Shown: positions 45,887 through 50,463 of the stretch, piece after piece
Numbering within the stretch: the stretch's first letter is position 1
Layout of the letters: each line of letters begins with the position of its first letter
Assembly: GCF_013122565.1 (NCBI RefSeq)
Contig: NZ_CP053258.1
Source of the DNA: Escherichia coli
GTDB taxonomy: Bacteria; Pseudomonadota; Gammaproteobacteria; Enterobacterales; Enterobacteriaceae
Length of the DNA stretch: 64,000 nt
Reading direction: 5' to 3' (one strand)
The notes under the pieces: generated by a model
What the model was told of the DNA's origin: nothing
Database searches by the model: none
What the model saw: only the letters and a program-made list of their open reading frames with translations
Translations under genes and position numbers: made by a program

Positions 45887-46157
45887 TTTCACTTTCTTGA
45901 CTTTTATCCCTTCACAAGCGGTCGATAAATAGCTTCCTCGGCCGCCCTATCATCACATATCGCATTTTCTTTTAATCAACGCTTGAAGGTGTTGTACGCT
46001 TAGCATCTTCACTATCTTCGCCACCTCCTTGCTGAATTTTATACAAATGAGCAATTTTTGATAGTTCAAAATTTGATTAAGGCTAGGATGAAAACAAATA
46101 AACTGCACTACCTAACGTCCAACGTAATGTTCTCAATAAATTATAAAGGAGAAGATC

Positions 46158-46739
46158 ATGACGATATATAATAATAATATAGGAACTCAAAATACAAAAA
46201 CACTGGAGCAATTTCAGAATGACCTGGTTAAAGCAGATAAAAAATTTGCAAATTCATCAAAATTAAACGCAGTTATTTATAAAAAGATTGATGGCTTTAC
46301 AAATCTTTTGAAAGATCTTATTCATTTCATCACGCATGGGAAAGTCGAGTTTAATTCGCAGCGAGTATCTAAACTCATGGCAGAAGTAACCTCTTTCGAG
46401 TCCAATATTGATGGAACCCCCAAAGATATAAATTTTATTTCTCAAAATGATTATTTACGCCAAACTGTATCCATCAGACAAGATGGGCTAGGCACAAAAA
46501 TAATATTCAGTGTAGAGGAAACCCATTTTAATATAGACCATGGCGTTTTTTTACACGGAAAAAAATGGAGTGAAACAAGATCGCTTCCTGAAGAATTAAA
46601 TATGGCTATTGTTGTTGAAAACCTTAGAAAATTGACCACACAGTTAAACAAAGCCGAGCGACACGAAGTAGAAAGAGAGTATAAAGAATATAAACTGGTA
46701 CAAAGTGCAAAACTGAATATTTTGTATAACCCGGAATAA
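46158..46739 (+). CDS. Hypothetical protein (193 aa), AT-rich orphan
   Basis: Clean ORF with RBS AAAGGAGAAG about 6 bp upstream of the ATG; no recognisable motif; AT-rich by eye. Confidence 0.5.
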   Translation: MTIYNNNIGTQNTKTLEQFQNDLVKADKKFANSSKLNAVIYKKIDGFTNLLKDLIHFITHGKVEFNSQRVSKLMAEVTSFESNIDGTPKDINFISQNDYLRQTVSIRQDGLGTKIIFSVEETHFNIDHGVFLHGKKWSETRSLPEELNMAIVVENLRKLTTQLNKAERHEVEREYKEYKLVQSAKLNILYNPE

Positions 46740-46850
46740 TAAAATAATGAGAGGAACAATCCTTGACTATTTCAGGAGCCGAAATTCATTTTCGACTCCT
46801 GTACGCATATGTTTCGCGTTAAAAGATCTCAATACAAAAGATGCATATCC

Positions 46851-47387
46851 TTAGAACGGAATGTCGTCATCAAAGTCCATCGGCGGCTCGTTAGACGGCG
46901 CTGCCGGAGCGGACTGCTGCGGGCGAGACTGCGCGCCGCCGCTGAACTGATTGCCACCCTGCGGCTGCTGAGGCTGACCCCAACCGCCCTGCGGCTGACC
47001 ACCACCGATATTGCCACCTGCCGGAGCGCCACCACCCTGACGACCACCCAGCATCTGCATGGTGCCGCCAACGTTCACCACGACTTCTGTGGTGTAGCGA
47101 TCCTGACCGGATTGATCGGTCCATTTACGGGTACGCAGCTGACCTTCGATATACACCTGAGAACCTTTACGCAGATATTCGCTGGCTACTTCTGCCAGTT
47201 TGCCGAACAGCACAACGCGGTGCCATTCAGTCTGCTCTTTCATCTCGCCGGTCGCTTTATCACGCCAGGATTCGGAAGTAGCCAGCGTAATGTTGGCAAC
47301 AGCGCCACCATTTGGCATGTAGCGTACTTCCGGGTCCTGACCCAGATTACCAACGAGAATAACCTTGTTTACGCCTCTGCTGGCCAT
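46851..47387 (-). CDS. ssb: Single-stranded DNA-binding protein
   Basis: [28 protein letters not shown]...; Gly/Gln-rich tail ending DFDDDIPF; 178 aa. Confidence 0.95.
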
Positions 47388-47537
47388 GTTCGTGTCTCCT
47401 GAAAAAAATCGTTCTGAATAAGTGTAAACGCGCGATTGTACCATTACCAATAGCGCTTTTACTATGTTGTGACCTCGGTTCCGGGAAACAAACCTGGCCA
47501 GACATTGTTACACAACACTCCGGGTAATGCATTCCAA

Positions 47538-47557
47538 TACTGTATATTCATTCAGGT
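47538..47557. promoter_or_regulatory. LexA (SOS) box in the ssb-uvrA divergent region
   Basis: TACTGTATATTCATTCAGGT, CTG-N10-CAG. Confidence 0.8.
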
Positions 47558-47640
47558 CAATTTGTGTCATAATTAACCGTTTGTGATCGCCGGTAGCACC
47601 ATGCCACCGGGCAAAAAAGCGTTTAATCCGGGAAAGGTGA

Positions 47641-50463
47641 ATGGATAAGATCGAAGTTCGGGGCGCCCGCACCCATAATCTCAAAAACATCAACCTCGTT
47701 ATCCCCCGCGACAAGCTCATTGTCGTGACCGGGCTTTCGGGTTCTGGCAAATCCTCGCTCGCTTTCGACACCTTATATGCCGAAGGGCAGCGCCGTTACG
47801 TTGAATCCCTTTCCGCCTACGCGCGGCAGTTTCTGTCACTGATGGAAAAGCCGGACGTCGATCATATTGAGGGGCTTTCTCCTGCCATCTCAATTGAGCA
47901 GAAATCGACGTCTCATAACCCGCGTTCTACGGTGGGGACAATCACCGAAATCCACGACTATTTGCGTTTGTTGTTCGCCCGCGTTGGCGAGCCGCGCTGT
48001 CCGGACCACGACGTCCCGCTGGCGGCGCAAACCGTCAGCCAGATGGTGGATAACGTGCTGTCGCAGCCGGAAGGCAAGCGTCTGATGCTACTCGCGCCAA
48101 TCATTAAAGAGCGCAAAGGCGAACACACCAAAACGCTGGAGAACCTGGCAAGCCAGGGCTACATCCGTGCTCGTATTGATGGCGAAGTCTGCGATCTTTC
48201 CGATCCGCCAAAACTGGAACTGCAAAAGAAACATACCATTGAAGTGGTGGTTGATCGCTTCAAGGTGCGTGACGATCTTACCCAACGTCTTGCCGAGTCA
48301 TTTGAAACCGCGCTGGAGCTTTCCGGTGGTACCGCGGTAGTTGCGGATATGGACGACCCGAAAGCGGAAGAGCTGCTGTTCTCCGCCAACTTCGCCTGCC
48401 CAATTTGCGGCTACAGTATGCGTGAACTGGAGCCGCGACTGTTTTCATTTAACAACCCGGCAGGTGCCTGCCCGACCTGTGACGGCCTTGGCGTACAGCA
48501 ATATTTCGATCCTGACCGCGTGATCCAGAATCCGGAATTGTCGCTGGCAGGTGGTGCGATCCGTGGCTGGGATCGCCGCAACTTCTATTATTTCCAGATG
48601 CTGAAATCGCTGGCAGATCACTATAAGTTCGACGTCGAAGCGCCGTGGGGCAGCCTGAGCGCGAATGTGCATAAAGTGGTGTTGTACGGTTCTGGCAAAG
48701 AAAACATTGAATTCAAATACATGAACGATCGTGGCGATACCTCCATTCGTCGTCATCCGTTCGAAGGCGTGCTGCATAATATGGAGCGCCGCTATAAAGA
48801 GACGGAATCCAGCGCGGTACGCGAAGAATTAGCCAAGTTTATCAGTAATCGTCCGTGCACCAGCTGCGAAGGGACGCGTCTGCGTCGGGAAGCGCGCCAC
48901 GTGTATGTCGAGAATACGCCGCTGCCCGCTATCTCCGACATGAGCATTGGTCATGCGATGGAATTCTTCAACAATCTCAAACTCGCAGGTCAGCGGGCGA
49001 AGATTGCGGAAAAAATCCTTAAAGAGATCGGCGATCGTCTGAAATTCCTCGTTAACGTCGGCCTGAATTACCTGACACTTTCCCGCTCGGCAGAAACGCT
49101 TTCTGGCGGTGAAGCACAGCGTATCCGTCTGGCGAGCCAGATTGGTGCGGGCCTGGTTGGCGTTATGTATGTACTGGACGAGCCGTCTATCGGCCTGCAC
49201 CAGCGCGATAACGAGCGCCTGTTGGGTACGCTTATCCATCTGCGCGATCTCGGTAATACCGTGATTGTGGTGGAGCACGACGAAGACGCGATTCGCGCCG
49301 CTGACCATGTGATCGACATTGGCCCAGGCGCAGGTGTTCACGGCGGTGAAGTGGTCGCAGAAGGTCCGCTGGAAGCGATTATGGCGGTGCCGGAGTCGTT
49401 GACCGGACAGTACATGAGCGGTAAACGCAAGATTGAAGTACCGAAGAAACGCGTTCCGGCGAATCCGGAAAAAGTGCTGAAGCTGACAGGCGCACGCGGC
49501 AACAACCTGAAGGACGTGACGCTGACGCTGCCAGTCGGTCTGTTTACCTGCATCACCGGGGTTTCAGGTTCCGGTAAATCGACGCTGATTAACGACACGC
49601 TGTTCCCTATTGCCCAACGCCAGTTGAATGGTGCGACCATCGCCGAACCGGCACCGTATCGCGATATTCAGGGACTGGAGCATTTCGACAAAGTGATCGA
49701 TATCGACCAAAGCCCAATTGGTCGTACTCCGCGTTCTAACCCGGCGACCTATACCGGCGTGTTTACACCTGTGCGCGAACTGTTTGCGGGCGTACCGGAA
49801 TCCCGTGCGCGTGGTTATACGCCAGGACGTTTCAGCTTTAACGTCCGTGGCGGACGCTGCGAAGCCTGTCAGGGCGACGGTGTGATCAAAGTGGAGATGC
49901 ACTTCCTGCCGGACATTTACGTACCGTGCGACCAGTGTAAAGGTAAACGCTATAACCGTGAAACGCTGGAAATTAAGTACAAAGGCAAAACCATCCACGA
50001 AGTGCTGGATATGACCATCGAAGAGGCGCGTGAGTTCTTTGATGCCGTACCTGCACTGGCGCGTAAGCTGCAAACGTTGATGGACGTTGGCCTGACGTAC
50101 ATTCGCCTGGGGCAGTCCGCAACCACCCTTTCTGGTGGTGAAGCCCAGCGCGTGAAGCTGGCGCGTGAGCTGTCAAAACGCGGCACCGGGCAGACACTGT
50201 ATATTCTCGACGAGCCGACCACCGGTTTGCACTTCGCCGATATTCAGCAACTGCTCGACGTGCTGCATAAACTGCGCGATCAGGGCAATACCATTGTGGT
50301 AATTGAGCACAATCTCGACGTGATTAAAACCGCTGACTGGATTGTCGACCTGGGACCGGAAGGCGGCAGTGGCGGCGGCGAGATCCTCGTCTCCGGTACG
50401 CCAGAAACCGTCGCGGAGTGCGAAGCTTCGCATACGGCGCGCTTCCTCAAGCCGATGCTGTAA
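47641..50463 (+). CDS. uvrA: Excinuclease ABC subunit A
   Basis: 940 aa; two ABC ATPase modules; zinc-finger Cys motifs. Confidence 0.95.

Follow-up and report, generated by a model that had tools for sequence, protein, structure and literature searches.

The LexA box between the divergent ssb and uvrA genes of Escherichia coli: matrix score, conservation and promoter context

The divergent ssb and uvrA genes and their surroundings

We analysed a stretch of 64,000 nucleotides from Escherichia coli (contig NZ_CP053258.1), referred to below as the 64-kb window, and within it the region that separates two genes transcribed away from each other, ssb and uvrA. The genes and the gap between them are as follows.

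46851..47387, minus strand: ssb coding sequence, 178 aa (MASRGVNK...DDDIPF) plus stop; annotated ssb1 in K-12
47388..47640, no strand: ssb-uvrA divergent intergenic region, 253 bp, GC 0.44
47641..50463, plus strand: uvrA coding sequence, 940 aa, ATG at 47641; annotated uvrA in K-12

The start of ssb is the annotated ATG at 47387 (complement of 47385..47387); the list of open reading frames extends this frame to an upstream TTG at 47450. A 461-bp query spanning the gap matches E. coli K-12, with which the RefSeq annotation agrees, at 100% identity and is present in 5425 of the 5426 complete E. coli genomes. The span 47388-47640, which a previous sequence-only reading had taken as the region between divergent ssb and uvrA, is thus exactly the gap between these genes, and the identity of both was verified by the 100% DNA match to K-12. 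A permissive Rfam scan of the intergenic region matched no RNA family. Positions 47479..47637 correspond to a fragment already cloned in a plasmid, where it serves as the uvrA promoter of a reporter fusion.

Two further features of the surrounding DNA were recorded. Between yjcB and the 3' end of ssb (45900..46850) lies an islet of approximately 870 bp with a GC content of 0.29-0.35, where the gap in K-12 is 98 bp. The islet occurs in only 22 of the 5426 complete E. coli genomes (best identity 97.7%, most around 87%), and it carries an open reading frame (46158..46739, plus strand) for a 193-aa protein that is always annotated as 'hypothetical protein' and for which searches of Pfam, NCBIfam and PADLOC returned no match. 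At the right end of the window, 63406..64000 holds yjbJ and the last 141 nt of dinF, an SOS gene located downstream of lexA in K-12. The lexA gene itself was looked for in the 64-kb window and is absent from it, since the window ends inside dinF; lexA lies about 1.3 kb past the window end, approximately 17.7 kb from the ssb-uvrA box described below.

Sequence and score of the LexA box

The intergenic region contains a sequence of the type bound by LexA in gammaproteobacteria (operator TACTGTATATATATACAGTA), in which CTG and CAG triplets stand 10 bp apart within a 20-bp imperfect palindrome.

47538..47557, no strand: LexA (SOS) box TACTGTATATTCATTCAGGT, with CTG at 47540..47542 and CAG at 47553..47555; read towards ssb, ACCTGAATGAATATACAGTA

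The sequence TACTGTATATTCATTCAGGT occurs a single time in the 64-kb window, on the plus strand. It departs from the perfect palindrome TACTGTATATATATACAGTA at five positions, and a search of the window for that palindrome with up to three mismatches (<=3) found nothing; this threshold was too strict for a box with five, and a matrix score was therefore used instead. The core CTGT-N9-CAG matches six times in the window against 5.6 matches expected, a chance rate that makes the core alone uninformative.

For scoring we utilized a heterology index (HI) matrix after Berg-von Hippel and Lewis, generated from the 18 E. coli LexA boxes in Table 4 of PMC3009722 and held out with respect to the site under study, the 18-box training list being without uvrA. 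The held-out HI of the box is 8.53 when read towards ssb and 9.2 when read towards uvrA, which falls inside the range of 0.27-9.29 spanned by the training boxes (n = 18), and no other site on either strand of the 64-kb window scores as well. The published HI of the E. coli uvrA/ssb box, 6.98 (Fernandez de Henestrosa et al. 2000, as quoted in PMC9505508), derives from a matrix that includes the uvrA/ssb box itself. Dinucleotide shuffling of the window gives an equal or better score 14 times in 300 (approximately 5%), so the score alone is not decisive at that scale; shuffles of the 253-bp intergenic region reach it in 2 of 5000 cases. The sequence-only reading had proposed a single LexA box at this place and had named a low matrix score as evidence against it. 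Both points fall in its favour, as the score of 8.5-9.2 lies within the range of established boxes and the runner-up 20-mer in the intergenic region has an HI of only 16.4, compared with 8.5 for the box.

The second-best matrix site in the window (22518..22537, HI 10.77) was rejected as a LexA site, since it has the form CTG-N10-CAT and lies within the fdhF terminator, in the hairpin and T-run cagcctccttccggaggctgttttttta that follow this gene. The fdhF open reading frame (formate dehydrogenase H, 20809..22488) measures 559 aa in the list of frames and matches profile positions 146-672, a shortness that fits the known selenocysteine codon, an in-frame UGA further upstream, which would split a mechanically called frame.

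Conservation of the box and proposed geometry of the two promoters

To place the box in the context of its relatives, species-representative genomes were scanned with the first 291 residues of UvrA, which yielded 80 gammaproteobacterial loci. A divergent ssb lies within 600 bp (<=600 bp) of uvrA in 45 of the 80, and these 45 include every Enterobacterales and Pasteurellaceae locus with a contig that reaches far enough upstream. Loss of the box from relatives would, according to the sequence-only reading, have counted against a LexA operator; a CTG-N10-CAG box was instead found upstream of uvrA in all 36 Enterobacterales loci (HI 6-12), and a box with HI <=12 in each of the 45 loci with an adjacent divergent ssb, a link between divergent ssb and the uvrA LexA box that has no exception among these 45. 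More broadly, 70 of the 80 gammaproteobacterial uvrA loci carry an upstream site with HI <=12; in a control on the 2.8 kb uvrA coding sequence, the best HI was never below 11.97, with a median of 16.2. A LexA-like site within 400 bp of uvrA is lacking in the remaining ten loci (L046, L049, L052, L059, L067-L069, L072, L076 and L080), which belong to Pseudoalteromonas, Alteromonas, Shewanella, Idiomarina and Aliiglaciecola.

At closer range, E. albertii and species of Kluyvera, Superficieibacter and Enterobacter have an unaltered box, as does the most divergent E. coli record, whose identity across the region is 94.8%. An alignment of the intergenic region from 22 species of Enterobacterales shows invariant columns at ACTG-ATAT----TCAG, with flanks that diverge freely, and the box together with the TGnCATAAT that follows it forms the longest run of invariant columns in the region.

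Two other observations arose from the same scan. The Vibrio loci (L038, L043, L050-L077) carry a strong box, TACTGTTTTTTTATCCAGTA, with an HI of about 2.5 and located about 65 nt upstream of uvrA; no ssb lies within 2 kb of uvrA in these genomes, and the box is closer to the E. coli uvrB box than to the E. coli uvrA box. A 2.9-kb contig labelled as a Hyphomicrobiales MAG (L028, JAATFR010000166.1) encodes a UvrA N-terminus 95% identical to that of E. coli, and its LexA box, TACTGGATATTCGTTCAGCT, is that of Acerihabitans arboris; the entry is probably a case of bin contamination by an Enterobacterales contig.

The promoter elements assigned around the box are the following.

47565..47573, plus strand: extended -10 of the uvrA promoter, TG-T-CATAAT (hexamer CATAAT at 47568..47573), assigned from conservation
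47545..47550, plus strand: presumed weak -35 of the uvrA promoter, TATTCA, inside the LexA box, with a 17-nt spacer
47531..47570, minus strand: zone of the LexA-controlled distal ssb promoter P1, with two candidate hexamer pairs read from the sequence
47570..47565 and 47546..47541, minus strand: P1 candidate pair 1, ATGACA-N18-TATACA
47560..47555 and 47536..47531, minus strand: P1 candidate pair 2, TTGACC-N18-TGGAAT
47435..47440, minus strand: candidate -10, TACAAT, of a proximal, LexA-independent ssb promoter, assigned from conservation

A scan of 47300..47720 for consensus sigma-70 promoters and terminators returned nothing at its thresholds (9-of-12 rule), so that the promoter elements are assigned from conservation and published work; in the case of uvrA, a weak -35 and reliance on an extended -10 would account for the promoter being missed. 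On the uvrA side, T47565, G47566 and ATAAT at 47569..47573 are invariant in the 22-species alignment, and among the 36 Enterobacterales loci there are 31 in which the box is followed at exactly 10 nt by TGnNATAAT. The hexamer at 47545..47550 is presumed to be the -35 from its spacing to this -10, and its location inside the box agrees with the statement in PMC9505508 that the SOS box overlaps the uvrA -35 region. From the position of the -10, uvrA transcription is predicted to start near 47580, which would place the box at about -42..-23. A position of the box over or beside core promoter elements of uvrA is thereby supported.

On the ssb side, the box is 151-170 nt from the ssb ATG in this window, comparable to the distance of about 170 nt between it and the coding sequence of ssb given in PMC9505508. 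As Brandsma 1985 is cited in that paper, ssb has three promoters, of which LexA can repress only the most distal. The hexamers that form this promoter, P1, may be one of the two candidate pairs listed above, and either would put the box across the core promoter. Closer to the gene, TACAAT (47440..47435, minus strand) is a good candidate for the -10 of a constitutive ssb promoter, its T1, A2 and T6 (47440, 47439 and 47435) being invariant across the 22 Enterobacterales.

The conservation extends to positions at which the box departs from its consensus. The right half reads ATTCAGGT, compared with ATACAGTA in the consensus, and the non-consensus bases are widely retained, with C at position 12 in 31 of 36 and T at position 15 in 35 of 36 Enterobacterales loci. 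This fixation of C12 and T15 across the order suggests an additional constraint from overlapping promoters. A right half that is off consensus would also be expected to give intermediate LexA affinity, and with it substantial basal expression of both genes and a modest induction ratio. We tentatively propose, at somewhat less than even confidence, that the deviations (C12, T15 and G/T at 19) are held by selection and not by drift, likely doubling as elements of the uvrA -35 and of ssb P1, and that they would fix LexA affinity at an intermediate level, setting an induction of both genes from a high basal level and by a low ratio. If true, such a constraint would represent a modest refinement of a known system and not a new one.

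Regulation of uvrA and ssb and relation to known SOS operators

Several explanations of the box were considered besides a LexA operator. A chance resemblance in an AT-rich intergenic region, with no LexA binding, could draw on the chance frequency of the CTGT-N9-CAG core in the window, on the five mismatches to the perfect palindrome, and on the equal scores that occur somewhere in about 5% of 64-kb shuffles; however, shuffling the intergenic region itself 5000 times gave the score just twice, an extensive literature treats the site (PMC9505508, PMC8072944, PMC3009722), and all 36 Enterobacterales loci keep both triplets unchanged amid intergenic sequence that diverges freely. This conservation effectively refutes chance, to which we give almost no credence. 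Scarcely more probable is that the block is conserved as promoter sequence (the uvrA -35 and ssb P1), or as the site of another regulator, with an incidental likeness to a LexA box. The block does overlap the presumed promoter elements, and the retention of the non-consensus C12 (31/36) and T15 (35/36) suggests constraint beyond that imposed by LexA. Nevertheless, the invariant positions are exactly those of the two triplets that LexA contacts (CTG and CAG, with 10 nt between them), together with ATAT of the left half, and the sequences upstream of uvrA in Vibrio, Pasteurellaceae and Aeromonas are quite different and yet again contain a CTG-N10-CAG box, a recurrence in distant lineages that fits LexA recognition and not one particular promoter sequence.

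The sole rival with real weight, although we regard it as unlikely, is that the operator functions for uvrA only and is shared merely in its geometry, with any effect on ssb made negligible by the dominance of its proximal constitutive promoters. For uvrA, SOS control as put forward by the sequence-only reading is borne out, and made direct, by the location of the box over the -35 region, documented in the literature and reflected in the conserved spacing to the -10; induction is approximately 3.5-4-fold (PMC9505508), and tiling arrays placed the same 18-mer motif upstream of the UV-induced uvrA transcript (PMC3009722). Induction of ssb, in contrast, has long been disputed. PMC9505508, which describes a single SOS box common to uvrA and ssb, lists several radioimmunoassay studies and three microarray studies in which it was absent, and also reports that ssb shows no SOS dependence during undisturbed growth. 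In Salmonella, ssb belongs to the group of genes that are expressed independently of LexA as long as they are not induced by damage (PMC8072944). A distance of at least 150 nt between the box and the ssb ATG and the presence of a well-conserved proximal -10 (TACAAT) point in the same direction. Against this, RT-qPCR (2022) detected a LexA-dependent rise of ssb after both UV and gamma irradiation, ssb is overexpressed in a constitutive-SOS mutant (PMC9505508), and the gene fusions of Brandsma 1983, as they are cited in PMC9505508, were inducible. The presence of the box in all 45 loci with divergent ssb also speaks for a role in ssb expression, although control of uvrA alone would explain it equally well. 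The earlier wording, which named ssb only as a possible second target, agrees with a literature in which LexA acts on only one of three promoters, the most distal, and in which induction was disputed until RT-qPCR showed a LexA-dependent rise.

Together these analyses make it very probable that the SOS operator of E. coli uvrA and ssb lies at 47538..47557, where one LexA dimer would bind between two diverging promoters. The site, its score and uniqueness, its conservation and its spacing to the -10 were computed in this work, and LexA binding (Brandsma 1983 and 1985 and Fernandez de Henestrosa 2000, as cited in PMC9505508), LexA-dependent induction and the three ssb promoters are taken from the literature; the divergent genes and the one box are observed, overlap with the uvrA promoter is supported, ssb P1 enters as two candidate pairs, and exact transcription starts are inferred. 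For uvrA, the box would occupy about -42 to -23 of a promoter dependent on its extended -10 (TGTCATAAT), such that bound LexA would cover the -35 region and exclude RNA polymerase. In the direction of ssb, whose ATG is about 150-170 nt away, the same box would overlie the core of the distal promoter P1. Following DNA damage, RecA filaments would stimulate the self-cleavage of LexA and the operator would be vacated, whereupon uvrA would rise a few-fold and a P1 transcript would join those made constitutively from the proximal ssb promoters. Since ssb would keep these proximal promoters throughout, its induction would be expected to be small.

The operator is already known, having been described since 1983, and is a textbook SOS operator of E. 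coli. The DNA analysed here has the same box, genes, orientation and distances as the uvrA/ssb SOS box of E. coli K-12, with a 100% identical intergenic region; the sole nearby difference from K-12 is the islet of about 870 bp past the 3' end of ssb, which leaves the regulatory region untouched. The K-12 box was reportedly described by Brandsma et al., in Nature (305:243) in 1983 and in NAR (13:5095) in 1985. As one of the founding examples of an SOS operator common to divergent genes, it serves here mainly as a positive control for the reading of regulatory sites from sequence alone, to which our comparison makes a small addition: Enterobacterales as a group have a fixed box, with a weak right half, at a fixed spacing of 10 nt to the extended -10 of uvrA.

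In Salmonella enterica, the orthologous site in another genus, divergent ssb and uvrA likewise have one common box (HI 6.99), about 80 nt from the uvrA start, and damage induces both genes (PMC8072944). The box-to-ssb distance given in that study is 24; it disagrees with the spacing between box and ssb ATG in E. coli and was presumably measured from another reference point. The operators of recA, sulA, umuDC, uvrB and lexA share the general design of the ssb-uvrA box, namely a CTG-N10-CAG palindrome that binds one LexA dimer, overlaps the core promoter and is derepressed when RecA stimulates the cleavage of LexA. Unlike these operators, the ssb-uvrA box serves two diverging transcription units, and its match is poorer than those of the recA, sulA and umuDC boxes (held-out HI 8.5 compared with 0.3-5.2), a weakness that accompanies a high level of basal expression and a low ratio of induction (PMC9505508).
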